DNA of 64,000 nucleotides from Candidatus Poribacteria bacterium (GTDB lineage: Bacteria > Poribacteria > WGA-4E > WGA-3G). Position numbers and translations under genes: made by a program. The stretch spans positions 12,044 through 76,043 of the forward strand of contig PYJA01000004.1 of assembly GCA_003635185.1 (NCBI GenBank), written 5' to 3'. Shown here one piece after another: positions 18,502 to 35,266 of this stretch. The notes beneath the pieces are model-generated. The model did not search any database. It saw nothing but the letters and a program-made list of their open reading frames with translations, and had not been told where the DNA came from. How positions within the stretch are numbered: the first letter of the stretch is position 1; each line of letters begins with the position of its first letter.

Positions 18502-19548
18502 CTATTCCTCACCATGCCACATCTGCGCGCGTGCCATAAAGACGTTGCGATCCTGCGACCATTCTGCGTAGCCGATGTTTCCAGAATCGGTAAGATAGTC
18601 AATCCACCAATTAAGATAGGCGAACAACTCCGCATCAGTGAGTGCTACCGTGAACCCACCATATTCGACTTGCTCATCCAAGGCAGACACAACAAATCCT
18701 CCATCGGATGCTGCGGTAGCATCCCGATTGCCAATCTCACCTCTTGCGATTGCGTCAATTCTACCATCGGCAAGTGCTTCAAGCAATTCCGATTCACCGA
18801 CTTCCGAACCGAGATAGATCACCTGCGGCATTTTCTCTGCAGGCGGATAGAGATGTGTTCTGCCTACCAGATTCGGAGAGACATCGGCAGCGGTAATTCT
18901 GTAAGCTGCTGTTCCATCGGCGACAAATATGCCATGCAGGGTCTCAATGCGCGTTCCCAAAGCGAGAATACCGTTAGCATCAATAAACTTTGTGATTTCG
19001 AGCAAGCGTGCTTCGCCGGTAGTGCCAGCAAGCACCCCGACACGTACATCATGCGTCAAGTCAGTGTAGTGTGAGAGGCGTCGTGCGTCTTCGGGACGAA
19101 CCAGAAGTGATTGGCGAAACTTGATATGTCCTGCAGTGAAAGCAACAAGCGGGGTGCCAGTTGCGTCCTGCCGCCGAGAATCAAGGATCGTGATGCCGCC
19201 TCCGATAATATCATATTCCGGTTCAGCCGCCTTGAGCCAGATACCTGGCCATTCGCCGATTGCCTTCCGAGAAAAAGACAAGCAGGTGTCTGCTATAGAT
19301 TCAAGTGCCGTCAAAATGTCTGCTTCATAGCCGAGATGTGTGTTAAATCCATTGGAAGTCGGATCTGGGTCAGCGCTGTAGCTGACAGGTGCGAAATAGG
19401 CATAGAAGCCGACATTAAGAACGCGTGGTTCCTTATTCCATACTGGTGGATAAGAAGAGTCAGGTGCGTCTATAATTTCATTGACAAGTTTCTCACACCC
19501 CGTTGAAAAAACAAAAAGCACTATCACAATTATAAACAAGACTCTCAT
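18502..19548 (-). CDS. Lipoprotein, type-2 periplasmic solute-binding-protein-like (SBP_bac_3-like)
   Basis: Lipobox VFSTGC. Pattern GYEADIL...YDIIGGGITIL..R...F...VGVLAGTTG...GRIDAIARG resembles amino-acid/polar solute binding proteins. Confidence 0.5.
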   Translation of the reverse strand: MRVLFIIVIVLFVFSTGCEKLVNEIIDAPDSSYPPVWNKEPRVLNVGFYAYFAPVSYSADPDPTSNGFNTHLGYEADILTALESIADTCLSFSRKAIGEWPGIWLKAAEPEYDIIGGGITILDSRRQDATGTPLVAFTAGHIKFRQSLLVRPEDARRLSHYTDLTHDVRVGVLAGTTGEARLLEITKFIDANGILALGTRIETLHGIFVADGTAAYRITAADVSPNLVGRTHLYPPAEKMPQVIYLGSEVGESELLEALADGRIDAIARGEIGNRDATAASDGGFVVSALDEQVEYGGFTVALTDAELFAYLNWWIDYLTDSGNIGYAEWSQDRNVFMARAQMWHGEE

Positions 19549-20486
19549 TGGAATTCTCCTTTTTTGCTTAGATGGATTTTCATGGTTTCTTCAAGGTTTT
19601 GGATACCCGCGGTGGTGCCGATAGCAGTTACGCATGCGGCACCGGTGGCAGATGCCAGTTCAGTTGTTTTTTTAAGATCCCATCCTTTTACCGTTCCTGC
19701 GAGAAAACCTGCTACGTAGGCATCACCAGCACCAGTTGCATCAACAACATTCACAGAATATGCGGGGACAAACAGTTCTTCTTCAGTCGTGGAAACGTAA
19801 CTACCGCGTTCACCCATTTTTATTCCAATAGTGCTGATACCGTAGTTCCTTAAAAATTTGGAGATTTCGCGCAGTTCGGATGTACCTGTGAGATGTTCTG
19901 CCTCGGTCAAACTCGGCAAAAAGATGTCAACAAATGGCAAACACGGTTCCAACGTTTTCAGCCACTTTCCTGTTGCGTCCCATGCGGTATCAAGTGAAGT
20001 CGTTATTCCGAATGATTTTGCTTTTTTGAGGACATTCGCCATGGGTTGTCCATCAAATTTAGGCATGACAAGTGCGCCTGCGATGTGCAGAATTTTAGCA
20101 GTCTTAATAATATCCCAATTGAGAGCATCTTCGTTCAGTTCACCATTCGCACCGATGTAGTGGCAGAAACTCCGTTCACCATCGGAAGCGATCGCCACGA
20201 ATGTAAAAGAGGTATTCGCGGTTGCGTCTCGTTGGATGCCTGCAGTGTCAACTCTGTTTTCTGTAAGGTGTTGCAGCACTAAATCTCCAAAATGGTCGTT
20301 GCCAATTTTACCCATCGCACCAACAGAAACACCAAGCCGTGAAAGTGCAATGGCTGTGTTATTGGCACACCCGCCCGCGTGGATTTCCAATTGATCAAAC
20401 AGTTCTAATTTTCCTTTTTCAGGAAAACGGTCAATAGGTCTTCCGAGCACATCAACAACAAAAATTCCGAGCGATAACACATCCAT
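19545..20486 (-). CDS. PfkB-family carbohydrate kinase
   Basis: N-terminal GGCANN motif and C-terminal DATGAGDAYVAGF anion-hole motif. The stop overlaps the next start (ATGA). Confidence 0.8.
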   Translation of the reverse strand: MDVLSLGIFVVDVLGRPIDRFPEKGKLELFDQLEIHAGGCANNTAIALSRLGVSVGAMGKIGNDHFGDLVLQHLTENRVDTAGIQRDATANTSFTFVAIASDGERSFCHYIGANGELNEDALNWDIIKTAKILHIAGALVMPKFDGQPMANVLKKAKSFGITTSLDTAWDATGKWLKTLEPCLPFVDIFLPSLTEAEHLTGTSELREISKFLRNYGISTIGIKMGERGSYVSTTEEELFVPAYSVNVVDATGAGDAYVAGFLAGTVKGWDLKKTTELASATGAACVTAIGTTAGIQNLEETMKIHLSKKGEFQ

Positions 20487-20547: not shown

Positions 20548-23500
20548 CTACAAATTTGCGGCTTCAGTATATATGCTTCTTCCCTCTCCATAATAGGATT
20601 CATAAACATGCTGATATACTGCTTTCCATTTTTTCTCAAACAGATCTTGCGTAAAGGTTTCAGGCAGTCCTTGATCAAGAATTGTTTGAACAGTCATTTC
20701 AGTTTGGGCACGCAATTGTTGCTGTTTGCGCCAGTCCAAGACTAAATTCTCCTGTTTGAGTGTTTCAATTAATCCCTTCACAGTAGTTTTTACCTCTTCG
20801 CGCTGAGGAAGGGTTAATTGTATTTCAGGTCGTGTTAGAAGATCGAATACCGCTAATTCTTCCTCTGAAAGTTCCTCGGAATCGGCGCGTTGTTCCTCTT
20901 CACGTATTTCCTCTCTTAATCCAGAAAATTTTCCAAGTAAAGTGTCAACATCAGACGTAGCGTTGTATTCCTCAATCATCTGTTCAAATTTCTCTTGAAG
21001 ATCAATTCGGCTTTTGTTAAGTTGAACCATCTCCTTGAGTTTTCTATTTATAGCACCCTTTAATCTTTCAGCTTGTGTGCGTTTGTGTTCTGTGTCGAAT
21101 TGTTCAGCCAGATGTTCAAAGTCAATTTGGCTTAAGTCAATTTGTTCTGAGTCATAGGTATGTTGACCTGCACTGATGATGTAACCTTCAGGGGCGATTG
21201 AGCGGTCCAATAATTCTTCTACTGCATTTTCGACCTCCGAGATGTCAACGGGTTCACGGAGATTCTTTATTTTCCGAGCGATAGTGTTTATCAGTGAACA
21301 TATCCCGATGAACTCATTCGCTGCAGTGTCGGGTAGAATTGCTTTGAATAATTTATAGATTTTGTTTGCTTGTTCGAGATAGTCATTTTTGGTTTGATCG
21401 TTGACCAGAATAAGATTTACTGCTTCGTCAATTAATTGGATTTGCTGCAGGCTATCAGTCACTTGGATTCTGGAAAAGTCAATTCCAAGGTTACTACAAA
21501 ACTCAGAGATTTCCGCGATTGCTTCTCTAAGCTCCTCAATAAGTTCCGATTTATCTGCAATAGGATTGCTTCCGTTCCCGTTAGATCCTGTAGCATAGAT
21601 AGCAAGTGCCTTTTCAAGGTCACGAAAGATGCCGATGTAGTCAACGATTAACCCGTTGACTTTATCTTCAAACACACGATTGGCTCTTGCAATTGTCTGC
21701 ATCAATGTATGGTTGCGTTGCGGTTTGTCAAGATAGATTGTTGAACATGAAGGGACATCAAAACCTGTGGTCCACATTGCACAGAGGAAAACAATACGGA
21801 AAGGATCATCTGGGTTTTTAAATTTGGTGTCCAAATCTTCTGTGTTCATGCGTTGCCGATGCGGACTTATGTCAACGCCTTTCCTTCTTAGATCATCAAT
21901 TTCGTTTTGTGATTGTGATACCACTACGGCCATATCGGTTTCTTCCATAAATTGAATTAACGCCTTAAGCGGTTTCTCTCTGTCTCTTGTAACGCCACTG
22001 TCCAATTCTGATTTCAGAGATTGAATTTTCTGTCTCCAGTACTTCTGAACTTTGTCGTACATTTTAACTGCTGTGGGTTTGTCAATAGAGATGACCATTG
22101 CCTTCCCCCTATAACCTCTGCCGATAAAATGTGAAACGATGTCTTCTGCCACTTTTTCTAAACGTTCATCCCGCGTAATGAGATGATATTCGCGTGCAAA
22201 CTCACGTTCCAGTCTTGCTTCTTGTGCCTCATCCAATTCCGCTTGCTCAAGAATCTGTTCAATGTCGGTATTTAAATCCTCATTTGTCAATTGCAATCTG
22301 GGAACGCGGTTCTCATAGTAGAGCGGGACGGTTGCTTTATCCTCTACGGATTGCTTGAAATCGTAAACTGACACTTCGTCTCCAAACACTTCACGTGTCT
22401 TTTCTTCACCTGCCATTAGCGGTGTACCTGTAAACGCAATATATGCAGCATTCGGGAGCGCGGTACGCATATTTAACGCTAATGTGTCGTATTGACTACG
22501 GTGTGCTTCATCGGTAATGACAATAATGTCTGATCGATCAGAGAGGACAGGATGCGGTTCATTATCTGCTGTCTGAAATTTATGGATAAGCGTGAAAACA
22601 TAACGGTGATCTTCGCTGAGCAGTTGACGGAGATCTTTGATGTTTTCCGCATGCACATCCTGCTGTGTTAAGACACCGCTGGCACTCGCGAAGGTTTTGT
22701 AAATCTGGTTGTCCAATTCTTTGCGGTCTGTTACGACAACGAATGTCCAGTGACCTTGCATCTTTCTGAGGACTTTCTGTGCAAAGAAGATCATTGAGAC
22801 ACTTTTACCACTCCCTTGCGTATGCCAGAACACACCGAGTTTTCCAAGATTGGATTCGTTTTCCTGCAATGCCTTAATTGCGTTGTTTACGCCCAAGTAT
22901 TGATGATTTTTTGAGACCAGTTTTTTTGTGCTACCATGGTCCTCCTTAAACAGTGTAAAATTTTCAACGATGTCCAATAATCGTTTTGGTTCACAGACAC
23001 CTTGCAATAGTGTTTCCAGTGAGACTCTCTGCTGTTCATCTTCACTTTCAATCCGTTTCCATTCGGTGAAGTGTTCCCATTTGGAAGTGAGGCTACCAAC
23101 GCGGCTCCTTGAACTGTTGGAAACTATAATTAAGGCGTTATACCAGAAAAGGTGAGGGATTGTGTCTTTGTAGTCTCGGAGGTTGTCAATGTAGGCTGCG
23201 TGTAAGTTTTCGTCAATCCGCTTGAATTCCATTAAGACTAAAGGAATTCCGTTGACGAATCCTATCAGGTCTGGCCGTCTGGTATACATGTCACCAGTGA
23301 TCCAGAATTGTGACGCTGCGAAAAAGTCGTTATTTTCTGGATTCTCCCAGTCAATGACTTTAATGACTGAAACAGTTTCTTCTTGCATGTTCGGGTCGGT
23401 GTCAGTTATTTTAACGCCATCTTTCAGAAAATTATAGATTTCCCGATTCGCTTCAACAAGACTCATGACAGCGCGGGATTGCGTTAATTCTTCAATTGCA

Positions 23501-23724
23501 GCACCAATAGCATCTTCAGGTGCATCGGGGTTGAGTCGTTCTAACGCCGCGCGGAGCCTATCGGTTAGCACGACTTCAGATTTTGCTGCTCTGCCAGTTC
23601 GAATTTCGCTGTCGTATTCAAATTCGTTTAAACAATCCTGAGTTTGCCACCCTATTTCTTTGAGCAATGCGATTGCGGGTTGTTCTACAAGTTGATCTTC
23701 ACTGTATGGGTTTTGCATAATCAC
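20548..23724 (-). CDS. hsdR: Type I restriction enzyme R subunit
   Basis: 1058 aa. N-terminal nuclease region, helicase motif I HTQGSGKS, motif II ITDEAHRSQ, long C-terminal coiled-coil tail. Confidence 0.9.
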   Translation of the reverse strand: MIMQNPYSEDQLVEQPAIALLKEIGWQTQDCLNEFEYDSEIRTGRAAKSEVVLTDRLRAALERLNPDAPEDAIGAAIEELTQSRAVMSLVEANREIYNFLKDGVKITDTDPNMQEETVSVIKVIDWENPENNDFFAASQFWITGDMYTRRPDLIGFVNGIPLVLMEFKRIDENLHAAYIDNLRDYKDTIPHLFWYNALIIVSNSSRSRVGSLTSKWEHFTEWKRIESEDEQQRVSLETLLQGVCEPKRLLDIVENFTLFKEDHGSTKKLVSKNHQYLGVNNAIKALQENESNLGKLGVFWHTQGSGKSVSMIFFAQKVLRKMQGHWTFVVVTDRKELDNQIYKTFASASGVLTQQDVHAENIKDLRQLLSEDHRYVFTLIHKFQTADNEPHPVLSDRSDIIVITDEAHRSQYDTLALNMRTALPNAAYIAFTGTPLMAGEEKTREVFGDEVSVYDFKQSVEDKATVPLYYENRVPRLQLTNEDLNTDIEQILEQAELDEAQEARLEREFAREYHLITRDERLEKVAEDIVSHFIGRGYRGKAMVISIDKPTAVKMYDKVQKYWRQKIQSLKSELDSGVTRDREKPLKALIQFMEETDMAVVVSQSQNEIDDLRRKGVDISPHRQRMNTEDLDTKFKNPDDPFRIVFLCAMWTTGFDVPSCSTIYLDKPQRNHTLMQTIARANRVFEDKVNGLIVDYIGIFRDLEKALAIYATGSNGNGSNPIADKSELIEELREAIAEISEFCSNLGIDFSRIQVTDSLQQIQLIDEAVNLILVNDQTKNDYLEQANKIYKLFKAILPDTAANEFIGICSLINTIARKIKNLREPVDISEVENAVEELLDRSIAPEGYIISAGQHTYDSEQIDLSQIDFEHLAEQFDTEHKRTQAERLKGAINRKLKEMVQLNKSRIDLQEKFEQMIEEYNATSDVDTLLGKFSGLREEIREEEQRADSEELSEEELAVFDLLTRPEIQLTLPQREEVKTTVKGLIETLKQENLVLDWRKQQQLRAQTEMTVQTILDQGLPETFTQDLFEKKWKAVYQHVYESYYGEGRSIYTEAANL

Positions 23725-23730
23725 TGGATA

Positions 23731-24099
23731 TCAGTACGGAATATATGTTATCTGATCTCGGAAATCTTCTGGCACACTTGCCAGACATATCAATTCAAGC
23801 GTATCAATGATTTGTTGGTAAGAAACGCGGGGACGTAATAGCAGAATACCTGGAATATGTCTCCCTTTTTTGAGGTGTGCTTGCAAATGGATCGGCATTG
23901 TGCTTCGGTTTGATGAGACAAGAATATATCCCTCACGTTCCAGAAATTTAAGAATTTCCTCATCTTTTGTGCTAATTGGTGGTACACCTTCACTCCCAAT
24001 GACCCGAACCTCAACTTCTGGTTGTCTTCGCTTGAGTCCATCACGGATAACATGTGAGGTATTTTCATCAAGCAGAAAGCGAATTTGGTATTTATTCAT
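23731..24099 (-). CDS. DUF5615-type PIN-like protein (putative toxin)
   Basis: 122 aa starting ..IRFLLDENTSHVIRDGL, typical of DUF5615 proteins that pair with DUF433. Confidence 0.6.
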   Translation of the reverse strand: MNKYQIRFLLDENTSHVIRDGLKRRQPEVEVRVIGSEGVPPISTKDEEILKFLEREGYILVSSNRSTMPIHLQAHLKKGRHIPGILLLRPRVSYQQIIDTLELICLASVPEDFRDQITYIPY

Positions 24100-24101
24100 T
24101 A

Positions 24102-24458
24102 TTACGCTGAATAATATCCTTGCGCTTCAAGCTCCGCTTTAATTTTCATGAGACGCTTGACACCAGGAGACGGGTTTTTTAGCTGCTCCTCATAAGCAGC
24201 CTCTGCATGTTTGATTCCCTCTGCAATATAGGTGTCGATTTTCTTTTTATTCAATAGATAATAGGTAATCGTAACATAAATCTGCTCTAACGTCAGATTT
24301 GGATATAGCCGTTGAATTTCCCTTGGGTCTGCCCCCTTAAGAAATTGCTCAATGACAATTTCAATGCCGACGCGTGTCCCTTTTATCCGAATTGCCGTTG
24401 GGTTGATGAATTCAAACATATCTTCAATTTTCATCATTAATTCCTTTGTCATCAACAA
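24102..24458 (-). CDS. DUF433 domain protein (putative antitoxin)
   Basis: IRIKGTRVGIEIVIEQFLKGADPREIQRLYPNLTLEQIYVTITYY matches the DUF433 core. It lies 2 nt upstream of the DUF5615 gene. Confidence 0.6.
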   Translation of the reverse strand: MLMTKELMMKIEDMFEFINPTAIRIKGTRVGIEIVIEQFLKGADPREIQRLYPNLTLEQIYVTITYYLLNKKKIDTYIAEGIKHAEAAYEEQLKNPSPGVKRLMKIKAELEAQGYYSA

Positions 24459-24556: not shown

Positions 24557-25768
24557 TTAAATAGTGCTGTCTCTGTCAATGTCAAGTTCGGATACGTCTA
24601 TTTCGCCAGAGATAAGTTTGGGAAGGAAGAGGTCGCGGGTTTGGCGAAGGTTGATGTTTTTCAAACGGAGAGTGTTACAGATATTCACCAAAGGACTTAC
24701 CTTTTGCCGGAAATCATTTAGAAGAGATTCCGTTGGTATGGACACGGGCATGTTGAGGAAGTCATCAGGTTTGACTCTCTGATGACTGGTAGAAGTCCCT
24801 AATGCACGGACAATAAAGTTTTCGGTAAATTCAGGAGACCGAAACAAATTATACAGAAACATACAATTAACTGGTGGTTTGGGTTTTAAAATAAAAAATT
24901 CGGTTGAAGCTATTGCTTTATGTTCTGTGTTTAAGAAGGGAAGCCAGACCCGAGGAATACGTGGATTCAGTTTAGATAAGAGAACTGACCCACCTGTGAC
25001 TAAGTATTTAGCACTTCTAATTGAATCACCATCCTCCAGAGCCGGCATGTGTTCATTATCAAAAGCAGGTATACTGAAATGTGCAAAAATTTCCTCTGGG
25101 AATTTGCTTGGAGTAATTCCATTCCTTACTAAATCTAATATGTCTGAAAATTGGACTACTTCCCATCCCCTGGGTATCGGTCCTAACTCTGACTCTACCT
25201 TCGGCACGTTCTCAGGTCCGGGAAATTGGTGGTGGACGAACCATTCTCGGTAGAGGGTTTGTGCCATGTCTTCAAGGATTTTGATGCGGCGGGTGTTGTT
25301 TTCTATGAGGTTGTCGTAGGTGCTGAGAATGGAAGTAATTTTTTGCTGGATAGGAATAGGGGGAAGAGTCAATTTGATGGTCTTAAGGTTTGTTTGAGAT
25401 AGCTTAGGTTGTGCTGTACCTGTGAGGTAACCTATAATTGCCACGTTAGAAAGAGCATAGTATAAAAAATCTGTTGAAATTGGTGATTTACCCCTAACGA
25501 CATGAGCATGGTTACTTACCCAAAATTTACCATTTACTAAATTTAAAACTGGCTTTCCATCCTGGGTAATAACACTACCATCTTCTGCAATCAATAAATA
25601 TCTGCCATCGAAAATGTAATCATCAACAGAGTCAATTATTCCCGCTGCACCATAATACGGAAATTCTCCCTGTCGTTCACTTCTCTGTCTGGTATTTAAA
25701 GGAATACGTTTGTGATCGTAGAGTTCAATTACCTCACCTAAAGTTGTTTCTGTCCACAAATCAATCAT
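24557..25768 (-). CDS. hsdS: Type I restriction-modification specificity subunit
   Basis: 403 aa with two TRD halves. Each half is followed by a conserved helix (ILSTYDNLIENNTRRIKILEDMAQ; ...LRLKNINLRQTRDLFLPKLISGEI). Confidence 0.85.
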   Translation of the reverse strand: MIDLWTETTLGEVIELYDHKRIPLNTRQRSERQGEFPYYGAAGIIDSVDDYIFDGRYLLIAEDGSVITQDGKPVLNLVNGKFWVSNHAHVVRGKSPISTDFLYYALSNVAIIGYLTGTAQPKLSQTNLKTIKLTLPPIPIQQKITSILSTYDNLIENNTRRIKILEDMAQTLYREWFVHHQFPGPENVPKVESELGPIPRGWEVVQFSDILDLVRNGITPSKFPEEIFAHFSIPAFDNEHMPALEDGDSIRSAKYLVTGGSVLLSKLNPRIPRVWLPFLNTEHKAIASTEFFILKPKPPVNCMFLYNLFRSPEFTENFIVRALGTSTSHQRVKPDDFLNMPVSIPTESLLNDFRQKVSPLVNICNTLRLKNINLRQTRDLFLPKLISGEIDVSELDIDRDSTI

Positions 25769-25785
25769 ACAACACCCTAAAATTA

Positions 25786-26877
25786 TTAGGTATTAACTTC
25801 GATCATGGCTAAGTTTTGCTCCGCTAAGAATTTTTTAAGATCTTCTGTGTATTCTGGCATAAGTTCTATATCTACTATACGGTACAATTCACGGCCAGCT
25901 CGGGAACAAGAAAAACCCTGCAATTTAAACTCCTGAATCGGATCTAAAGGACTAAATATCCAATCCCGCTCTTGATGCCAAAAGGGTTGAGGCATTGGAT
26001 TGCTCAGGTTCTCTATACATAAATTATAGGGATATAAATAAACGTTTTCCATAAAATCAACCAATCCGTACTCAATTAGGTTATCAAGTTGATAATAATT
26101 CAAGCATCCCTCGCTCAAACCCACTTGTCTAAGGTTTCTGCCCAGAGTGAGAACTCTAACATCAATTACATATCCATCAGTTCGATTCTCAAAAGCAATA
26201 GACGTTGAACACAGTTTTTTGAATAAGACAGCGACATCATGGTCCAATTCACTTAAGATTTTCACAGTTCGTGTAGAATATGATCCCGGTTTTCTAATTT
26301 CCCCCGCTAAGACACGACCAAAATGACGCTGCATGTCTTCAGTGCTTACCTGCCGGGCTTCAGTTTCAAAGTTGTTAAGCCAATCATCGTTGATTGTTGT
26401 TTCCTCGTTATTATCTGTTCCCTGATTTGTTGCCTCTGCAGGTCCTTCTTTATTAGGTTCACCAGTGCTTTGATTTGTTTTCTCTGCAGCTATCGCTTTC
26501 TTAAGTTCCTCTGCAGCAATAGCAGAGATTTTATCGAGGTTAACCTGTTCGCGCAATATTTTTTGGCCATATTTGCTTACAGCTATCCGTGCATATTCTG
26601 GGTCAACCTTCATCTGTTGAGCAATTTGGTCTGCATTTTCCCTGATAATCTTAATACGTGCTTCTGACTCTGCTCGTTTTTCGGAGGACCTCCGCTCAAG
26701 AGCTTCAACAGGCACATCGATTAAAGCAGAACAGAGTCGGTCAAAAGCTTTAAATACGTTCCGTCTAATTGGAGCGGGAATGGTTGAATCTAACGCAAGA
26801 TCGGTGACAGCATCAAGAGTGGTGTTTGGTGCTTCTTCGGTTGTTACGGGTAGGTCGGGTTTCGTTTCATCAGACAT
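25786..26877 (-). CDS. Hypothetical protein, DUF2806-like (coiled-coil N-half, globular C-half)
   Basis: The segment DDWLNNFETEARQVSTEDMQRHFGRVLAGEIRKPGSYSTRTVKILSEL resembles, from memory, the DUF2806 core. It lies between hsdS and hsdM. Confidence 0.4.
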   Translation of the reverse strand: MSDETKPDLPVTTEEAPNTTLDAVTDLALDSTIPAPIRRNVFKAFDRLCSALIDVPVEALERRSSEKRAESEARIKIIRENADQIAQQMKVDPEYARIAVSKYGQKILREQVNLDKISAIAAEELKKAIAAEKTNQSTGEPNKEGPAEATNQGTDNNEETTINDDWLNNFETEARQVSTEDMQRHFGRVLAGEIRKPGSYSTRTVKILSELDHDVAVLFKKLCSTSIAFENRTDGYVIDVRVLTLGRNLRQVGLSEGCLNYYQLDNLIEYGLVDFMENVYLYPYNLCIENLSNPMPQPFWHQERDWIFSPLDPIQEFKLQGFSCSRAGRELYRIVDIELMPEYTEDLKKFLAEQNLAMIEVNT

Positions 26878-26935
26878 ACTTATATCCTTTCTCTTGCGCC
26901 GATAACAATCCTTCTTTCAAGCAAATCTGGTTTCA

Positions 26936-27265
26936 CTAAGTCGCAACGACTCGCAGGTGTCCGCCTTTTTCGTTGGAAGGCTTAATATGAATTTCAACGT
27001 CTCGGTTTAGCTTCTTCAGAATCACAAGCAGACGTTCTACTGTAAAATCTTCAAAATCCATCTTCTTCAGACGTTTCACATCATTCAGATCAAGTCCGAA
27101 GCGTTTTGACGCTTTTGCTGGTGTCAGTTTCAGTTCTTTAAGCAGGCAGTGGATTGTATAGGCGAGGTCTACCCTTAACAACTCACGTTCCGCTTCTTCT
27201 TCAGAGAAACCGATGTCTAAAAACACATTGCCAGAACTCTTTGTAAATTTGATTTCTTCAGTCAT
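26936..27265 (-). CDS. XRE-type HTH antitoxin (HigA-like), copy 1
   Basis: MTEEIKFTKSSGNVFLDIGF... Start set by analogy with copy 2. It overlaps the toxin stop by 8 nt. Confidence 0.65.
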   Translation of the reverse strand: MTEEIKFTKSSGNVFLDIGFSEEEAERELLRVDLAYTIHCLLKELKLTPAKASKRFGLDLNDVKRLKKMDFEDFTVERLLVILKKLNRDVEIHIKPSNEKGGHLRVVAT

Positions 27266-27614
27266 TTTTAGTCTCCATTTCATGCGCCATTTTTAATCTC
27301 TGTTTAATCAAATCAATTTCCTTTTTAGGGGTGCGGATACCACGCGTGGATTTCTTTTGGAATGCGTGGAGCACATAAATATTCTCACCCAATTTGACAG
27401 TATAAACTGCGCGATAAGTATTCGTATCGTAACGAGCAGTGATCTGAAATACACCTGAACCTACTCCCCGTAGCGGTTTTGCATTTTCGTCTTTGCCTCC
27501 CATTTGAGCGATACGTAATGCTTCACCTACCGTTGTTTTCGCAGCTTTAGGAAAATTCCGTACTCGCGCATGCGAATCACCAACCCATATTACATCTTTC
27601 ATCGCTTCATTCAA
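27258..27614 (-). CDS. RelE/ParE-superfamily toxin, HigB/Gp49-like, copy 1
   Basis: 118 aa; RAVYTVKLGENIYVLHAFQKKSTRGIRTPKKEIDLIKQRLK is typical of Gp49/HigB-type toxins encoded upstream of an XRE antitoxin. Confidence 0.65.
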   Translation of the reverse strand: MNEAMKDVIWVGDSHARVRNFPKAAKTTVGEALRIAQMGGKDENAKPLRGVGSGVFQITARYDTNTYRAVYTVKLGENIYVLHAFQKKSTRGIRTPKKEIDLIKQRLKMAHEMETKND

Positions 27615-27675
27615 AATTCTACCTGATTCTCTAAAATGTGTTTTTTATGTTTCCAGCGAGGTGTCGGTGATTATC

Positions 27676-27975
27676 TTACACAGGGATATGTTCCACTTCA
27701 ATCTCAAGCCATGAATCCCATTGATGATCAGAGACATAAGTTTTGCCAATTTTTTTTATTTTTTCTATGTACATATCTACTTTTTCTAAATCTGAGTCTT
27801 TTGGATAGGTAACCATTAGTGTAAGTGTTTTTCCATCATCTTTTGGCATATATATATACTTGAATTTTCCATCATAAGGCACCTCCAGAATTGATGAAAA
27901 TGAATTTAATGCAAACGCTAACCATTCTAAACGAGACGGGGTGTAATGCTCTAAACCTGGTGCTTTTTCTGCCAT
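27676..27975 (-). CDS. Hypothetical 99-aa protein
   Basis: Clean ORF between the two HigBA-like modules. No recognisable motif. Confidence 0.4.
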   Translation of the reverse strand: MAEKAPGLEHYTPSRLEWLAFALNSFSSILEVPYDGKFKYIYMPKDDGKTLTLMVTYPKDSDLEKVDMYIEKIKKIGKTYVSDHQWDSWLEIEVEHIPV

Positions 27976-27993
27976 GCTGATCTCCTTTGTTCA

Positions 27994-28401
27994 TTATAGG
28001 TACTTGCTAATTAGCGGGACAATCACAGCAGCGATTGCTACGGTTGTGCCTATAAACCATCTCAATCCTGAGATTCTTTCCTTGATGTCATCTCTAACTA
28101 CTTGAATATCGTTCTCTAAGTCTGTTTTGACTTCTCTGATGTTATTCTCTAAGTCTGTTTTGACTTCTCTGATGTTATTCTCTAAGTCTGTTTTGACTTC
28201 TCTGATGTTATTCTCTAAGTCACTTTTGACTTGCAACAAGTCTGTTCTGACTTGCATAATGTCACCCTTCAGATCTGTTTTGACTTCATTCATCCGATTT
28301 TCAAGGCGAGATTCATTTTTTACGAGCTCTATGCCAGTCCCTTTTTTGTCAGTTGTATGGATTTGTAGGAATTCAAATATTTCGTCTTTGGTATTCACCA
28401 T
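27994..28401 (-). CDS. Tail-anchored coiled-coil protein with 11-aa tandem repeats (DUF1640-like by appearance)
   Basis: ATG at 28401 after AAGGAG. Contains (ENNIREVKTDL)x3 and ends in one C-terminal TM segment, WFIGTTVAIAAVIVPLI. Confidence 0.45.
   Translation of the reverse strand: MVNTKDEIFEFLQIHTTDKKGTGIELVKNESRLENRMNEVKTDLKGDIMQVRTDLLQVKSDLENNIREVKTDLENNIREVKTDLENNIREVKTDLENDIQVVRDDIKERISGLRWFIGTTVAIAAVIVPLISKYL
28113..28211. repeat. Three perfect 33-bp tandem repeats inside the coiled-coil ORF
   Basis: The unit tctctaagtctgttttgacttctctgatgttat occurs at 28113-28145, 28146-28178 and 28179-28211. Degenerate copies lie on both sides. Confidence 0.9.
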
Positions 28402-28502
28402 GACCCACTCCTTATTGGCAGTTGCTTCTTGTATTGAACAAAGTTTATCATAACGGGACACAAAATACCAGAAAATAATAATTTGGATTATGGGAGGATA
28501 GA

Positions 28503-28832
28503 TCACGAAGTCGTAACGACTCGCAGGTGTCCGCCTTCTTCGTTTGAAGGTGTGATGCGAATCTCAACGTTGCGGTTCAACTGATTCAGGATTGTAAAGA
28601 GTTTGTCTATGTTAAAATCGAAATCCCCGTTCTGTATTCGGGACACATCGGATGGATTGAGTCCGAAACGTTCCTCTGCTTTTACTGGCGTGAGTTTGAG
28701 TTCATCAAGTAAGCGATAGATTTTAATGACGAGATCCACTCTTAACTGTTCACGCTCAGCTTCTTCTTTAGAGAAACCGATATCTAAAAACACATTTCCG
28801 GAACTCTTTGTAAATTTAACCTCTTCACTCAT
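28503..28832 (-). CDS. XRE-type HTH antitoxin (HigA-like), copy 2
   Basis: MSEEVKFTKSSGNVFLDIGFSKEEAERE..; clearly paralogous to 26936-27265. Confidence 0.65.
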   Translation of the reverse strand: MSEEVKFTKSSGNVFLDIGFSKEEAEREQLRVDLVIKIYRLLDELKLTPVKAEERFGLNPSDVSRIQNGDFDFNIDKLFTILNQLNRNVEIRITPSNEEGGHLRVVTTS

Positions 28833-29181
28833 TTTTTGCCTCCATTTCCTGCGCCATTTTCAGACGCTGTTTAATCAAATCAATTTCCTTTTTAGGTGTG
28901 CGGATACCACGTGTGGATTTCTTCTGGAATGCGTGAAGTACATAGATACTCTCACCTAACTTAACAGTATAAACAGCACGGTATGTGTTCGTATCGTAAC
29001 GAGCGGTAATTTCCAATACTCCCGAACCTATTCCCCGCAACGGTTTAGCATTCTTGTGTTTAGATCCAGATTGAGCAGCCTGTAATGCTCTACCTACTGT
29101 CGTTCTCGCAGCTTTAGGAAAACTCCGTACTCGCGTATGCGAATCACCAACCCATATTACATCTTTCATTGCTTCATTCAT
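28825..29181 (-). CDS. RelE/ParE-superfamily toxin, HigB/Gp49-like, copy 2
   Basis: 118 aa, near-colinear with 27258-27614 (roughly 85% DNA identity by eye). Confidence 0.65.
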   Translation of the reverse strand: MNEAMKDVIWVGDSHTRVRSFPKAARTTVGRALQAAQSGSKHKNAKPLRGIGSGVLEITARYDTNTYRAVYTVKLGESIYVLHAFQKKSTRGIRTPKKEIDLIKQRLKMAQEMEAKNE

Positions 29182-29199
29182 AATTTGACGCTTTTAATA

Positions 29200-30786
29200 T
29201 TATACCGTATTCTCTAAAATCTTCGCAACATTCTCTGCGATGCGTTCTTCCAATTGGTGTGCCTCTGCGTTTAGGATTTCTAATTCCTCATTGAGTTCAC
29301 CGAACCGTTGCGTAAAGTCAAAATCCTCAGTTTCTTGTGTTGCAACACCGACATAACGTCCGGGGTTCAAACTCCATCCCTGCGCTTCAATTTCTTCCAC
29401 TGTAGCAACTTTGCATAGACCGGGAACATCAACGTATTCTCCATCAGGAAATTTGTTGTTGAGAAGTTCCTCACTGTTGTGTCTGTTTTCAAGGGTTTCG
29501 TCTCGGTAAAGGCGCGCTATGTTTGCCAAGAATTCGAGTTGCATGGGTGTAAACTCACGATGTGCGCGACTGACTTGATGATAGAGATTGCGGGCATCAA
29601 TGAAGAGAACTTTATCGTGTCTGTCGGTATCTTGTTTAGATTTGTCAAAGAACCAGAGGGTACACGGGAGCGTGACTGTATAGAAGAAATTTGATGCGAT
29701 GCTTATCATGACATCTACAACTCGGGATTCAATAATCTGTTTGCGGATTTCCAATTCGGAGGCGCGAGCATCTGCGGCGGAGTTTGCCATCACAAAACCC
29801 GCTTTACCCGTATCGTTCAGCGAGCTCAGAAATAGCTGTATCCAAATATAATTTGCATTATCTACGCGCGGCATGCCGTAAGGGAATCGTGGGTCATCTT
29901 TTATTCGTTCCATATCGACTCTATCAACATTAAAGGGTGGATTCGCCATCACAAAATCGAATTTACCCAAAGACTTATGCGGGTCTTGATAGTAGCTATT
30001 CGCTTGCCTGATGTCTCCTTCGTGTCCATGCACTGCAAGGTTCATCTTGCAGAGTCTGATAGTCTCATTCACCCGTTCAACACCATGAATGCTAATATGC
30101 CCCTGATTACCGTTTTGTGTATGATTCCGAATAAACTCTTCGCTTTGAACGAACATACCACCAGAGCCGCACGCTGGATCAAGGATACGTCCGTGAAATG
30201 GTTGGAGTATTTCAACGATGAGTTTAACGAGAGAAGTTGGCGTAAAGAACTCACCGCCTTTTTGCCCTTCACTCATAGCAAAATTGCCCAGGAAGTATTC
30301 GTAGACCTTACCAAATGCATCGCCTTCAATATCCATCGGAATTTGTTCCATGATACGTAGAAGTTCTATCAGCGTGCTCTTTTCAAGGCGATTGTAGTTT
30401 TTGGGCAAAACCCCTTCTACCTGCTTGTTTGCTGCTTCAATAGCTTTCATTGCATTGGTGATAGCTTGTCCAATGTTATCGCTTTCTGGTAAATTCAGAA
30501 GATGCTGGAATCTTGCTTCTTTTGGCAAATAAAAAGCACCGCGTGCTTGGAATTGTGTTTTTTCATCAATTCGTACCCGCGAACCCGACGGTGTTTCAGA
30601 ATTGAGTTCTTGTTGTACCTGTTTAAATTTATAGTCGGCGTATTTTAAAAAGATAAGTCCTAAGACTGGCGTAGAGTATTCAGAACCTTTGAGACTTGAA
30701 TTGGCTCTTAATTCATCTGCAGCACTCCATAGTTTGTTTTCGATCTGCGTCATGTTGGTATCCACAATCTTACAATATTCCTGCAC
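29200..30786 (-). CDS. hsdM: Type I restriction-modification N6-adenine DNA methyltransferase subunit
   Basis: N-terminal HsdM domain (LWSAADELR), AdoMet motif [12 protein letters not shown], catalytic VMANPPFNV. The start may instead be the ATG at 30753 (MTQIENKLW). Confidence 0.9.
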
Positions 30787-30818: not shown

Positions 30819-32783
30819 TTACATCCCTCTGTCTTTTTCATCAAGATACATAATAACTAACGTTTCATCATTTACGGTAACATTCTCATCTGCTAACATG
30901 AGCGGAACATTTGTAGAAACTTGCTCCAACTGTGAAGTCCATCCCATCAATACCGTACGGATCTGAATTTTGTTAATCGCAAGGGCATTTTCCGGTTTCA
31001 ACAGATATTGTAATAAACCTTCACGCTGTAATATTTGTGCAAACGCTTTTCGAGTTCCATCAAGTTCTTCGTCAGGAGGGACTTTATTTATTGTTTTACT
31101 TGATGTCTCTGATGACCACAAATCACTACTGCCAAGTGTGACTGTTCCTAAGTAGGCTGCTTCTTCACCCGTGATTCTCCATGCGTTCTCAAGTGTTATT
31201 TGAGACTGTTGCGTATCTAACGGGAAAAATGTCTCTTTCACATAGGTGCTGGGGAACCACGGTTCTAAAGAGATTTCTTGCAGTTGAAACGGTGAACCTT
31301 GAAAGAATTGTGGTGGTTTCGCAACACTTTCATTACTTAAAGGGCGAATAAAAGTGTTTTGCACCAGCGCAATTGACGTTTTCGTGCGCGCAGTAGTCCT
31401 AAATGAAATATAACTTTGTAAATGTGCATTTTTCTGTTCTGGGTAGATTGATAATATTGAAAACCGATCTGTCTCTATTTTTTCAGGTAAGACTGCTCGC
31501 GCTATACCAATAGCACCAACAGATACAAAGACAAAAATTACCCCTCCGATCCAATAACTGCGAATTCTTTTTTGTGGTGATCGTCTATGTTTCCCAAAAT
31601 AGAGGAGAAACCCGCCAAAACTGAACAAATATATCGGCAGGACAACAGCCAAAAATTTAATGAGTGGAATCTGTGTAGGCATTTTTGACAAAAACTGCTT
31701 ATGAATCTTGTCTTCATGTTGCCGAAACGGCGCGTACTTGTCAGCAAATAGTCTTGGTGATTTTCCGTGTGTTTTGAGTAGCCAACGCCAAAAGGTTTCC
31801 CCTGCTTTCAAGTCTGAAAATGGTGGTGCGTTGTAATCAAAGGCAAAAGATATAATCTGTCCACTTCCAAAATTTCGTTTCGCAATGTAAATCTGTTCAT
31901 CTGTACCGAGCAAAGTGTGACATTCGGGGTTCGGTTCAAAATGAATATTTTTAAACGAAGAACTCCCTAAGTCCTCTTTATTAGTGGGAGTATTGAGACC
32001 AAATTGTTGTTGTAAGCTAGTCGGCACTTTATTAATTGTCTCTTCACGGACCAATTTGACTGGAAGATATTGCTCAATAAAACTATCCTTCAGGTAACGA
32101 AAGTTCGCACCTCCTGGGACGATAAGTGTCCCGCCACGCTGCACCCATTCTAATAGTGCTATCTGCCGTTGTTTAGAAATCCGCCTCTCAGTGAGTGACA
32201 CCTCGCGAATCACCATCAGATCAACAGCACTGTACCCTATCCATCGCGTTGGCATTGCGTTTGAATTCGGAAGGTATCTGATGTGTGCCTGTGCGTCATC
32301 GTCATCCAATTGTTTCTTATCAATAAATTTTTGTAGTTTATCTCCACTCGGTGCTAATACTAACACAAAATAGTCTTTGTTTTCTATCGGTGCCGTTAGT
32401 GAGAGTTCTTGTGTAGCAATTGGTTCTGAATAGATAATTTCTTTATCATTTCCTCTTGTTCGCACTACTTGAATGAAAAGTTTTATGGCATTTTGGGGAC
32501 AGTAGATATAGAGTTTTTTATGTTTAAGATCCGTTTTACTCAGCTGCAACGGAATAGCATAACGGTGAATAGGTTTATCTGAATATAAATTACGAACTTC
32601 AACAGCAAGTTCTCCGTTAAAAGTGCTGGGTTCATGCTGGCTTCGAACGGTAACATTCAGAGGTGCCCATTTCCCCGCTTTATATCCATTGTTGAAGCCA
32701 AATGTCACATCCTGAATATCTACCGCGCAGAAGGCTGAAGATACCACAAGAAACGATAAGAAAACTGTAACTTTCGTCCCCAT
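30819..32783 (-). CDS. Hypothetical membrane protein (signal peptide, large N-terminal exoplasmic domain, two central TM helices)
   Basis: Start moved to the ATG at 32783 (MGTKVTVFLSFLVVSSAFCAV). TM segments IPLIKFLAVVLPIYLFSFGGFLLYF and YWIGGVIFVFVSVGAIGIA. No family recognised. Confidence 0.5.
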   Translation of the reverse strand: MGTKVTVFLSFLVVSSAFCAVDIQDVTFGFNNGYKAGKWAPLNVTVRSQHEPSTFNGELAVEVRNLYSDKPIHRYAIPLQLSKTDLKHKKLYIYCPQNAIKLFIQVVRTRGNDKEIIYSEPIATQELSLTAPIENKDYFVLVLAPSGDKLQKFIDKKQLDDDDAQAHIRYLPNSNAMPTRWIGYSAVDLMVIREVSLTERRISKQRQIALLEWVQRGGTLIVPGGANFRYLKDSFIEQYLPVKLVREETINKVPTSLQQQFGLNTPTNKEDLGSSSFKNIHFEPNPECHTLLGTDEQIYIAKRNFGSGQIISFAFDYNAPPFSDLKAGETFWRWLLKTHGKSPRLFADKYAPFRQHEDKIHKQFLSKMPTQIPLIKFLAVVLPIYLFSFGGFLLYFGKHRRSPQKRIRSYWIGGVIFVFVSVGAIGIARAVLPEKIETDRFSILSIYPEQKNAHLQSYISFRTTARTKTSIALVQNTFIRPLSNESVAKPPQFFQGSPFQLQEISLEPWFPSTYVKETFFPLDTQQSQITLENAWRITGEEAAYLGTVTLGSSDLWSSETSSKTINKVPPDEELDGTRKAFAQILQREGLLQYLLKPENALAINKIQIRTVLMGWTSQLEQVSTNVPLMLADENVTVNDETLVIMYLDEKDRGM

Positions 32784-32832
32784 TTGCAACTCCAACTCGA
32801 GATAGTTTAGTATAAGAAGTAAAACTTCTGTT

Positions 32833-33678
32833 TTAGATGAGTCGTGCGGGATTTTTTGAGAGTTGTGTTTCCGTTGCTCCATCAAACGCATGGGTGCTGA
32901 AAACCCCGTTTCCCAACATAATCATTGATGCGGCACCGCCTGCTGCTTCAATTTGGTCAACTGTGTTTATCACCCGTGCATCGCTCAGCAAACCACTTTC
33001 CGCAGAAAATTGTTTGGCGACTGCAAAACATGCGGTAAAGAGTTCAGGATTTGATGGAGTATGTGTAAGTCTTTGCAAAGCAGCTAACGCAGTATCCGCA
33101 GCGCGATTGATACGTTTCGTTTGTTCACTGTTTCTAAGTACTTCGCTTGTCTGAATTGGCCCAAAATACCGATAATAGATAGGTTGATCGGGTATCGGCA
33201 ATTTGTCTGCCACTAAAGGTGCCCCTTCCTTCAACTTGACGAGACATCCGCCGTGGTATTGCGAGCAGACATCACCTAATCCTGTCCGATTTTCAACTTC
33301 AGCCACATGCGCGATCATTGCAAGTTCTTCATTTTCTTTTTGTGTCCCTATTAGCTTATTCAATGCGTACGCTGTAGCGAGTGAAGCCGCACCGCTTAAC
33401 CCGAAGCCACAACCCAGTGGAAGTGGGGACGTAAGATTCACTTTTATGCCTGTTGTGTCTATATTTTGGATGAGCCGATCGACTACAGCGCGGACTGTCG
33501 GAAAATTGATGTCCTCTCCGTTGAATAGTACCTGTGTTTGATGATGTTCCGAAACGGAGGTTTGGACACCCTCTGTGATGGTAAAGCCCATGCCGAGAGA
33601 ATGCATCCGTGCGGGATCGGCGTGCGGAATTATTTTAAAGACACACGAAATGTTGCCAGGGGCAAACGCACTCGCCAT
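32833..33678 (-). CDS. GHMP-family kinase (pantoate-kinase-like)
   Basis: The ATG at 33678 follows AAGGAGTG. N-terminus APGNISCVFKI and GHMP motif II PLGCGFGLSGAASLATAYAL. The roughly 281-aa size is typical of archaeal-type pantoate kinases. Confidence 0.55.
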   Translation of the reverse strand: MASAFAPGNISCVFKIIPHADPARMHSLGMGFTITEGVQTSVSEHHQTQVLFNGEDINFPTVRAVVDRLIQNIDTTGIKVNLTSPLPLGCGFGLSGAASLATAYALNKLIGTQKENEELAMIAHVAEVENRTGLGDVCSQYHGGCLVKLKEGAPLVADKLPIPDQPIYYRYFGPIQTSEVLRNSEQTKRINRAADTALAALQRLTHTPSNPELFTACFAVAKQFSAESGLLSDARVINTVDQIEAAGGAASMIMLGNGVFSTHAFDGATETQLSKNPARLI

Positions 33679-33723
33679 ATCACTCCTTTTTTTGATAGTA
33701 AAATCCATAATTACTTGGACACG

Positions 33724-33812
33724 ACGGTAGGTTCGGTTTTCTAACCGAACCTGTGTAAATACGGCAGAATACGCGTGTGGTATTCTGCATTGGTTAGAAA
33801 CCGCACCTACCA
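33724..33812. repeat. About 90-bp imperfect palindrome built from family B hairpin modules
   Basis: The left arm cggtaggttcggttttctaaccgaacc...cagaatac pairs with the right arm gtattctgcattggttagaaaccgcacctaccag. Confidence 0.5.
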
Positions 33813-33898
33813 GGGAGTGTGAAAATATTTTGGATTTCACTATAAGATGAATAACTTTAAACTCCTCTGCGCGCGGACAAAGTGTATCTACGGTAGGA

Positions 33899-34481
33899 TC
33901 AGGGTGTATCCCTCCATTGGACACGTCTATAGATATGACTCAAAGGCAGTTCGCAGCGAATTGAAGCCAGTGGTAGTACATCCGCGAGATCCTGAAATTC
34001 AATAGTCCTCCACTGCGTACCTAACCGAAAATGGCGTTCAACGTTTACTCTCGTCTTGCGAAACAAGGATGTATTCTTGCAAGGACGCGATCTGCTTATA
34101 AGACTCAAATTTCTCCCCTTTGTCATAAGCTGCAGTTGACAGGGAAAGCACCTCTACGACAACAGTTGGGTTGAGGAGCGTATCAAATACATCATCTTCA
34201 AAACGGGGTTCATCACAGACAACGGCAACATCCGGATAAAAGTAAGATGTTATCGGGTTTGCCTTTATACGCATCTTGCCGGTGTAGGCCTCACAATCCC
34301 GATTCACCAATTGGTTGTAAAGTCCATTAAATGTATTTCCTGTGATAAGATTATGTGCGCGACTTGCCCCGTACATCGCGAGTATCTGTCCGCTGAGATA
34401 TTCATTTTTGAAGGGGGCTTTGCGTTCCCACGCGAGGTATTCCTCAGGTGTCAGGTGAGTTTGCACTGCAATAGCTGCCAT
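33899..34481 (-). pseudogene. Uma2-family (DUF820) endonuclease gene with a frameshift
   Basis: The N-terminal 147 aa (LTPEEYLAWE...VVVEVLS.S....D...K...Y.....EYILVSQDE) stop at 34038. The expected C-terminus (VNVERHFRLGTQWRTIEFQDL..LPLASIRCELPLSHIY) continues in another frame to 33899. Confidence 0.6.
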
Positions 34482-34899: not shown

Positions 34900-35097
34900 T
34901 CAAATTCGCCTAAGCACCTTTTCATATTCTCTATGTGGACCAATCCAAATTATGTCGTTTCCATCTATTTCACCTAATGCCCGATAATCAACATTTATTC
35001 GAACTGAGTAAATTGGTCGCGTATTGTGGACCTTTTTAAACTGTAAACTCGAATGATTCTGGATCCAATTCTTGTGTTTTCCCTTTTCTATGCTCAT
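34900..35097 (-). pseudogene. RelE/ParE-superfamily toxin remnant (N-terminal region missing or overlapped)
   Basis: The C-terminal 52 aa (NHSSLQFKKVHN..YSVRINVDYRALGEIDGNDIIWIGPHREYEKVL) align with the intact toxin at 45254-45508. The first 30 or so codons would have to overlap the antitoxin ORF in another frame. Confidence 0.45.
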
Positions 35098-35266
35098 CAA
35101 GGGCTTTTTGTCCCAACGTAGCCAAAACTTCTTGTGAATTTGCAAAAAGTTTAGACCAGCGTTTTTCGGATGACAGTTCAGTAAGCAACCATTCAGCCAA
35201 GATGTTTTGTTCTTCAGGTGAAAGTTTTGACGCTTCTGAAAAGGCACGTTTGAGTTGTTTGGTCAT
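35036..35266 (-). CDS. Small antitoxin-like protein
   Basis: 76 aa, immediately upstream of the toxin remnant. AGGAGAA RBS. Confidence 0.45.
   Translation of the reverse strand: MTKQLKRAFSEASKLSPEEQNILAEWLLTELSSEKRWSKLFANSQEVLATLGQKALDEHRKGKTQELDPESFEFTV

Follow-up and report, generated by a model that had tools for sequence, protein, structure and literature searches.

Genes for toxic or defence proteins are known to be embedded in type I restriction-modification (R-M) operons. In EcoprrI-PrrC, RloC and DarTG2 of the RRDM island of enteropathogenic Escherichia coli (EPEC), such genes lie co-oriented between hsd genes, in intervals that behave as recombination hotspots, and EcoprrI-PrrC is the precedent for a guard-type effector tied to a type I R-M system. 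DarTG2 is found between hsdS and hsdR, a site proposed as a recombination hotspot (PMC12255303), and the embedding of defence genes in type I R-M operons has been described as ‘guilt-by-embedding’ (bioRxiv 10.1101/2024.01.29.577857) and is now used to find new immune systems. An earlier note on the DNA studied here, made from its letters alone, had taken such embedding as its background. Belisama is a validated single-gene anti-phage system of Vibrio cholerae integron cassettes, in which DUF2806 is the sole recognisable domain; it causes unrecoverable culture lysis at high multiplicity of infection, is toxic when over-expressed and was reported by its authors to have remote similarity to Abi-alpha (bioRxiv 10.1101/2024.07.02.601686). 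Here we describe a stretch of 64,000 nucleotides from a Candidatus Poribacteria bacterium (the window; assembly GCA_003635185.1, contig PYJA01000004.1, positions 12,044 to 76,043), in which a type I R-M operon carries a DUF2806 gene, two HigBA-like toxin-antitoxin (TA) modules, and adjacent genes for a putative tail-anchored coiled-coil protein (TAcc) and a 99-residue protein (p99).

The operon occupies the region 20.5-30.8 kb, where hsdM, HigB_B/XRE_B, TAcc, p99, HigB_A/XRE_A, DUF2806, hsdS, DUF433/DUF5615 and hsdR follow one another on the minus strand (Table 1). All genes are on one strand with short gaps or overlaps, as the note had claimed. Domain searches recovered all the sequence features of type I HsdM, HsdS and HsdR, and the three genes appear intact in the window. 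The cargo differs from that of the PrrC, RloC and DarTG2 loci. It consists of two HigBA modules, DUF2806 and TAcc-p99, with no anticodon nuclease and no DarTG, and there is no RptR-like first gene. No cargo protein combines the N-terminal ABC-type ATPase and C-terminal anticodon nuclease of PrrC and RloC, and searches of Pfam, NCBIfam and PADLOC returned no ATPase, nuclease or PrrC-type match for any of them. Two cargo bays are used, one between hsdM and hsdS and one between hsdS and hsdR. What is new is the DUF2806 gene fixed beside hsdS, the bracketing of the hsdM-hsdS bay by diverged TA alleles, and the TAcc-p99 family.

We consider it fairly probable that this is a composite defence locus shuffled by recombination. 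Its skeleton in one Poribacteria lineage would be hsdM, XRE with or without HigB, variable cargo, DUF2806, hsdS, variable cargo and hsdR. Defence would begin with Hsd, which would restrict unmodified DNA, and the DUF2806 protein would form the second line, as a Belisama-like abortive-infection effector acting independently of Hsd. HigBA, presumably a ribosome-dependent mRNA interferase with an autoregulating XRE protein, would keep the locus stable and may also control genes downstream of it; its repeated, conserved sequence would offer the homology for cassette exchange. TAcc-p99 would be an accessory, fast-evolving paralogue, and most likely a passenger of the recombination hotspot.

The DUF2806 gene beside hsdS

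The note had described a DUF2806-like gene next to hsdS. The match to PF10987 is well above the cut-off and aligns residues 149-347 with profile positions 25-220 of 221; hsdS starts 17 nt past the gene. The N-terminal half, about 150 residues, is predicted to be helical, and the coiled coil proposed for it corresponds to long helices predicted, at low confidence, for residues 64-136. An AlphaFold2 (AF2) model of the protein had a mean predicted local distance difference test (pLDDT) score of 66, rising to about 85 in the C-terminal domain, and no match in the Protein Data Bank (PDB). In the NCBIfam scan TIGR03899 scored 71 bits, under its cut-off of 156.

Homologues of the protein fell into more than 700 clusters, the best 120 of which were all at least 52% identical to it. 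Six close homologues (58-68% identity) were traced to seven loci, and in all seven the gene lies directly upstream of hsdS in a Poribacteria hsd operon. Adjacency was read at L088, L090, L091-L093, L094/95, L096 and L097 (L numbers denote the loci compared with the window), and at four of these the stop codon of DUF2806 directly adjoins the start of hsdS. The order in all seven is hsdM, variable genes, DUF2806, hsdS, variable genes, hsdR. The genes between hsdM and DUF2806 include two short-chain dehydrogenases/reductases (SDRs), a 2'-5' RNA ligase, a binding protein, DUF433/DUF5615, TnpB, BrnT and an insertion sequence (IS), and the chromosomal genes that flank the seven operons vary as well (LptF/G, GH32 and others). 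Within this operon family, the DUF2806 gene keeps its place beside hsdS. The L094/L095 protein (P0076) comes from a metagenome-assembled genome (MAG) named Gammaproteobacteria at NCBI; the hsdM of that contig is 76% identical to the window's at the DNA level and the operon has the same layout, which makes mis-binning of a Poribacteria contig probable.

Distant homologues are found in other surroundings. At 48 metagenomic loci with 24-48% identity, a search by tblastn and with hidden Markov models (HMMs) of the lineage found no hsd neighbour (0/48), the HMMs having been built from close relatives so that a very divergent hsdS could escape them. Neighbours at these loci included six integrases, one type IV secretion system coupling protein and ArdC. 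DUF2806 genes also occur on about 300 conjugative enterobacterial plasmids and in two phages, and on an Acaryochloris plasmid one adjoins HicAB and a NACHT gene; viral contigs held one weak DUF2806 locus. The occurrence of distant homologues alone, together with the adjacency seen here, indicates that DUF2806 is generally autonomous and has, in this lineage, become fixed beside hsdS as its partner. We propose an action independent of Hsd since full-length homologues in other settings are solitary genes on mobile elements. The gene shares with Belisama the DUF2806 domain, above the Pfam gathering threshold, and distant homologues that stand alone on mobile elements as Belisama does; it differs, so far as a comparison through the Pfam domain goes, in its fixed position beside hsdS and its helical N-terminal half. 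It evolves under constraint, with a ratio of non-synonymous to synonymous substitution rates (dN/dS) of 0.19-0.34. These data support the view that it encodes a Belisama-type candidate abortive-infection effector, which would make it candidate defence content in an uncultured phylum of sponge symbionts.

An arrangement of the PrrC type would also place an effector beside hsdS. In that case the DUF2806 protein would be kept inactive through physical contact with the HsdM/S complex, and freed when a phage anti-restriction protein disables R-M. The conserved abutment to hsdS, with overlaps in four loci that resemble translational coupling, would fit such a guard, as would the EcoprrI-PrrC precedent. 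So would the comparison of the window with L001, in which DUF2806 (53-57% amino acid identity in two alignments) and hsdS (42-56%) are the most divergent genes and hsdM is 93% identical, suggesting that DUF2806 and hsdS were exchanged together. We nevertheless think a guard very unlikely. Full-length homologues of 35-48% identity occur on mobile elements without any hsd genes, Belisama functions as a single cassette gene, and DUF2806 has been lost or has decayed in six of the eight p99-containing operons. The protein, unlike PrrC, has no detected ABC-ATPase or nuclease domain, and its fold is without a PDB match.

Diverged HigBA copies and exchange of cargo

Both HigBA copies have the toxin gene first and overlap the antitoxin gene by 8 nt. 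The Gp49 matches (profile positions 4-90 of 90) and the HTH_37 matches cover nearly the whole profiles, and by these sequence features each copy qualifies as a type II HigBA module, bearing out the toxin and XRE antitoxin assigned to each repeat by the note. The direct repeats of about 680 bp that it reported do exist, in direct orientation and 1.57 kb apart. Their identity had been put too high at about 85%; it is 78.9% over 679 aligned columns (143 differences), with 84% for HigB and 74% for XRE, and the homology stops near the gene boundaries. Between copies A and B, dN/dS was 0.15 for HigB and 0.23 for XRE. These low values indicate that both copies have been kept functional since an old split, which is unlike what a collapsed or duplicated assembly would give. 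Two diverged direct copies in one operon set this locus apart from usual HigBA modules.

The copies are allelic types that occur separately in relatives and are not a recent duplication. A B-type XRE (77-88% amino acid identity to XRE_B, about 66% to XRE_A) directly follows hsdM in L088, L091, L093 and L008, and one follows p99 in L001, L002 and L008. An A-type XRE (at least 84% to XRE_A) occurs behind p99 in L005; in L008 one immediately precedes hsdS and is accompanied by a HigB with 87% amino acid identity to HigB_A. The window holds both types, one on each side of the TAcc-p99 cassette. A chimeric join of two strain variants, of the kind that MAG assemblies can contain, would also bring two alleles into one contig. 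We give this almost no credence; the copies are just 79% identical and each has its own flanks, the independently assembled L008 has a B-type XRE after hsdM and A-type HigBA before hsdS, and a remnant of XRE_A in L001 and L004 (described below) preserves the junction between cassette and HigBA_A as it stood in an ancestor.

Relatives often keep XRE without HigB, again unlike usual HigBA modules. An XRE (HTH_37) gene stands beside hsdM or the cassette without HigB in L001, L002, L005, L090, L091 and L093, and might either regulate the operon or be an orphan antitoxin. Its frequent retention suggests an additional role of XRE in regulation or recombination. The final 60 nt or so of all XRE alleles (window 26937-27001 and 28508-28570; L001-L094) are conserved at the nucleotide level far above the rest of the gene, and this 3' end might serve in crossing-over or in regulation.

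The limits of the TAcc-p99 cassette were set by DNA comparison at 28475 and about 27640 in the window, from a -35-like element to about 35 nt beyond the p99 stop. The homology block common to the window and L001-L003 begins at 28475. The cassette is a self-contained unit whose conserved block opens at a promoter-like -35 element. Directly behind the cassette, L001 and L004 retain a 65-nt remnant of the XRE_A 3' end at 95-98% identity; the deletion junction is clean, and these loci therefore descend from a window-like arrangement of cassette and HigBA_A. L001 also has a duplicated 202-nt fragment of the hsdM 3' end, followed by a B-type XRE. In L008 the order is hsdM 3' fragment, cassette, XRE_B, a 324-aa reverse-strand open reading frame (ORF), an hsdS fragment and a complete hsd operon, and hsdM 3' fragments thus border the cassette in both loci. 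The seven operons found through DUF2806 lack the TAcc-p99 pair and keep a single XRE or HigBA, the kind of allele that the note had proposed to look for. Relative to L002-L006, the synonymous divergence (dS) of the cassette (0.26-0.39) is lower than that of the flanking hsdM (0.61-0.94), from which a more recent exchange of the cassette follows.

The note had suggested that the direct repeats mediate gain or loss of the inner genes. The single-type XRE alleles, the XRE_A remnants, the hsdM 3' fragments and the operons without the pair support this indirectly: breakpoints in relatives lie in XRE/HigBA and the hsdM 3' end, and recombination appears to have carried the cassette both into hsd operons and out of them. 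Integron cassettes, hsdS shufflons and defence-island hotspots likewise swap modular cargo between conserved flanks, and here too relatives differ in entire cassettes. Unlike those systems, this locus has no integrase, attC-like site, invertase or tRNA genes. No recombinase takes part in the exchange, and the tRNA scan was empty, which excludes a tRNA-linked island. Transposon-like ends of the cassette were considered and rejected, as just a weak 40-nt inverted repeat (70%) and no target duplication were seen. The space between hsdM and DUF2806 is a variable cargo bay in which exchange appears to use ordinary homology. The comparison of relatives suggests that the cargo moves by recombination in repeated TA sequences.

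A bay of this kind might be no more than an interval that tolerates insertions, in which TA, DUF2806 and the pair persist by addiction or hitch-hiking and serve neither defence nor R-M. Related operons do contain IS, TnpB, gene remnants and duplicated hsdM and hsdS fragments; HigB is often lost, leaving an orphan XRE; and metabolic genes (SDRs, binding protein) have entered the bay too. We regard this explanation as unlikely but by no means far-fetched. Against it, the cargo of the window is all intact and HigB, XRE and DUF2806 are under purifying selection (dN/dS 0.15-0.34), anti-phage activity has been shown for a DUF2806-domain protein, and the adjacency of DUF2806 to hsdS persists while other cargo turns over.

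The TAcc-p99 pair within and outside hsd operons

The note had called the 136-codon product a tail-anchored coiled-coil protein. Residues 113-131 of its 135 form the only hydrophobic stretch (Kyte-Doolittle 1.98, maximum elsewhere below 0) and are preceded by 11-residue (hendecad) repeats, in keeping with that description. The 33-bp repeats that had been noticed in the gene are also there, with exact 65-nt copies and 97% matches in the repeat analysis. Proteins of the DUF1640/CCDC90-like type and 11-mer proteins resembling late embryogenesis abundant (LEA) proteins and apolipoproteins have the same combination of hendecads and a C-terminal transmembrane helix. TAcc, in contrast, falls under all family thresholds (Apolipoprotein, E 8e-8, sub-threshold; CCDC90-like, E 4e-3; PF07798, the DUF1640/CCDC90-like family, 17.5 bits against a cut-off of 33.5), is found only in Poribacteria and is always paired with a p99-type gene. 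Its hendecad number varies widely among homologues.

For p99 there was no match in Pfam, PADLOC, NCBIfam or PHROGs. The AF2 model (pLDDT 87.7) has an alpha-beta-beta-alpha-beta fold, for which Foldseek found nothing significant in PDB (best E 0.01; OsmC and SAM-synthetase fragments) or BFVD, and a sequence profile search of PDB was empty. A word search gave 29 clusters, and a profile search gave 577 hits at E <= 1e-3 among 1.84 billion representatives. The domain shared by this family has the motif PYTPSRLEWLA..LN...WDSWLKV. In most listed members the domain follows about 25-35 N-terminal residues, and those read begin with signal peptides. Some members have two to four tandem copies of the domain and others are fused to a trypsin-like protease, leucine-rich repeats (LRR), DUF1080 or a DUF4190 membrane protein. 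No p99 was found in viral contigs. The pair adds two uncharacterised families, a tail-anchored 11-mer-repeat protein and a large domain family without a Pfam model.

A scan of species-representative genomes with the pattern Y[TI]PSR[LI]EWL gave 39 p99 loci, 36 in Candidatus Poribacteria, two in Nitrospirota and one in Nitrososphaerales; the pattern missed the paralogue at the sucCD locus (YSPSRLEWF), and these counts are therefore biased. Of the 35 Poribacteria loci besides the window (L001-L035), 31 showed in tblastn a TAcc-type gene upstream of p99, at a distance of about 20 nt. The TAcc gene is shortened or carries a frameshift in L005, L006, L011 and L018, and none was detected at L016, L019 or L028. 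A strict pattern search placed the promoter-like motif TTGCAx-N17-(TG)TAxAxT at a constant spacing from the start codon at 12 of 27 loci, and near-matches at other loci were noted by eye.

The contexts of the pair are diverse. It lies in hsd operons in the window and in L001-L006 and L008, which form one clade in the p99 tree. It is directly downstream of a gene fusing N6_N4_Mtase and Mrr_cat in L009, L025, L026, L030, L031 and L105, in several syntenic settings, and downstream of HSDR_N_2+N6_Mtase/Eco57I and an S-like gene in L012. In about one third of loci, then, the pair is just downstream of one of three unrelated methyltransferase types. The fusion gene is missing from the close relatives L027, L028, L033, L035 and L018, a pattern suggesting either a hotspot of insertion or a link in function. 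L025 and L009 share 60-64% identity in the fusion protein and 45% in p99, and L025 and L031 share 41% and 54%, respectively. This disagreement of the methyltransferase and p99 trees indicates that the adjacency arose repeatedly; movement of methyltransferase, TAcc and p99 as one unit was rejected on the same grounds. In L104 the pair is on a 67,195-nt contig beside ParA/RHH genes and a MvaI_BcnI/N6_N4_Mtase type II R-M system, and in L107 p99, with no TAcc gene called, is on a 30,853-nt contig beside DDE transposases. Names ending in ‘c’ suggest that both contigs are circular, and they are probably Poribacteria plasmids. All remaining loci have housekeeping neighbours, for example LigA, UbiD/PolA, PBP1a, CcsA and GH32.

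A paralogous pair (106-aa TAcc, and a 95-aa p99-like protein with the motif YSPSRLEWF that is 39% identical to p99 of the window) lies inside sucC-pgk-proS-pair-sucD-panB. Protein P0199 of this paralogue alone was read on 17 contigs, and P0195 lies on a 5.9-Mb contig; the paralogue was seen at positions 5001-5628 of L099-L102; it looks like the core copy of the module. Its dN/dS is 0.07, and hsdM and UbiD gave 0.04-0.09 and 0.02-0.04. In hsd operons the p99 of the window gave 0.15 against L001 and 0.50-0.84 against L002-L008, with all eight ORFs intact, and in other accessory contexts values of about 0.1-0.8 were obtained. TAcc-p99 thus appears to be a membrane-associated module specific to the lineage, of which one copy is core-like and several others are accessory, mobile and quick to evolve.

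The accessory copies might work with R-M. They would then be a module associated with R-M or methyltransferases, neo-functionalised from the sucC..sucD paralogue and serving as a membrane-anchored backup or abortive effector or as a regulator. Such a link could account for the co-directional position of the pair directly downstream of three unrelated methyltransferase types, reached through independent histories, for its mobility on small, presumably circular contigs that carry R-M genes (L104) or transposases (L107), for dN/dS values far above those of the sucCD paralogue and hsdM in ORFs that stay intact, and for a promoter-like motif of its own in many copies. Poribacteria genomes are rich in R-M genes, so that chance alone should produce some adjacency. 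Housekeeping genes are the only neighbours at more than half of the loci, p99 has no PADLOC match and TAcc has just weak ones of a coiled-coil type (low-scoring, partial matches to the coiled coils of models such as LeoA and ZorA, E 1e-5 or weaker; neither protein has a significant match in PADLOC-DB v2), and there is no viral p99. The relatives of the p99 domain, mostly secreted and fused to proteases, LRR or DUF1080, point to a generic binding domain. TAcc is truncated or missing in several loci, where sequencing errors are possible, and the census is skewed by the search patterns. We judge a working partnership with R-M unlikely. The fuller proposal, that neo-functionalised copies, each a membrane-anchored hendecad coiled-coil protein with a small alpha/beta partner, were spread by plasmids and inserted after R-M methyltransferases as backup defence, exclusion or control, with diverged HigBA/XRE modules as portable homology arms by which R-M operons exchange such cassettes, seems to us rather unlikely too. 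The note had proposed both DUF2806 and the pair as R-M-associated backup effectors. For DUF2806 the proposal is supported by the Belisama domain and the position beside hsdS in seven of seven loci; for the pair it is weakened, and a defence role is unproven. If the pair is functionally tied to R-M, it would be a new kind of R-M accessory module; if not, the locus is still a clear case of a housekeeping-type module captured by a defence hotspot.

We return to the composite locus, in which Hsd and a Belisama-type effector would defend, HigBA would stabilise and TAcc-p99 would be a passenger. Several points weigh against it. A passenger role leaves the recurrence of the pair downstream of three methyltransferase types unexplained, and equally the dN/dS of 0.5-0.84 in intact ORFs. 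The seven loci with DUF2806 beside hsdS come from one lineage and were found with DUF2806 as the query, and of the eight operons recovered with p99, two have an intact DUF2806 gene (the window and L001), two keep remnants of it (L003, L005) and four lack it. The link to Belisama rests on a shared Pfam domain as stated in the preprint. Finally, promoter-like and terminator-like matches in the region were, over the whole scan, no more numerous than in shuffled controls.

Other features of the operon and its surroundings

Table 1. Features of the hsd operon in window coordinates, listed from hsdM to hsdR
Feature	Position	Strand	Basis and remarks
hsdM	30786..29200	-	Pfam HsdM_N E 9e-25 and N6_Mtase E 3e-86; first gene of the operon
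Promoter-like TTGCGA-18-TATAAT	29199..29228	-	Consensus scan; overlaps hsdM stop, upstream of HigB_B
HigB_B	29181..28825	-	Pfam Gp49 E 8e-22; hsdM-proximal TA copy
XRE_B	28832..28503	-	Pfam HTH_37 E 4e-14; 8-nt overlap with HigB_B
Cassette 5' end	28402..28475	-	Promoter-like region and ribosome-binding site; -35 degenerate in the window (CTGGTA)
TAcc	28401..27994	-	ATG start; 135 aa, 136 codons; 11-residue (hendecad) repeats and predicted C-terminal transmembrane helix
33-nt tandem repeat in TAcc	28112-28232		TRF: period 33, 3.7 copies, 97% matches; encodes DLENNIREVKT units
p99	27975..27676	-	99 aa; leaderless member of a domain family without Pfam model (PYTPSRLEWLA...WDSWLEI)
HigB_A	27614..27258	-	Pfam Gp49 E 4e-21; hsdS-proximal; TTG start, or ATG 12 nt downstream
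XRE_A	27283..26936	-	Pfam HTH_37 E 2e-14; homologous start probably 27265
DUF2806 gene	26877..25786	-	363 aa; PF10987 E 2.5e-24, 86.8 bits against cut-off 24.5
hsdS	25768..24557	-	Methylase_S E 4.5e-29; PADLOC Specificity_I E 8e-75 over residues 5-398
DUF433 + DUF5615 (PIN-like) pair	23731..24458	-	Pfam DUF433 E 3e-9, DUF5615 E 8e-7; second cargo bay, hsdS-hsdR
hsdR	20548..23724	-	HSDR_N E 2e-45, SWI2_SNF2 E 3.5e-76, ResIII, T1R_D3-like, T1RH-like_C

The promoter-like motif at the end of hsdM was seen again at the hsdM 3' fragment of L008, and the promoter scan gave a perfect TTGACA-18-TATAAT match at 24540-24511, before the DUF433/DUF5615 pair. No minus-strand terminator was found inside the cassette by the terminator scan, no Rfam match at 20-36 kb and no tRNA gene by the tRNA scan. 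In relatives the hsdS-hsdR interval holds different small genes, including an AAA_15 ATPase with a 180-aa protein, PIN_3 and UPF0175. The window's hsdM is 88-95% identical to that of L001-L006.

Closely related hsd operons lie at four or more chromosomal sites, marked by PfkB/GHMP-kinase, SurA-like/LptD-like, LptF/G and GH32 genes (compared were 19545-20486 and 30819-33924 of the window, 586-5745 of L001, L096 and L097), and the whole hsd operon has therefore been mobile or repeatedly relocated. A few kilobases from the operon of the window there are a Uma2-family gene (34038-34481, minus strand) and a ParE-like toxin gene (34900-35247, minus strand), the latter overlapping a 76-aa upstream partner (35036-35266).

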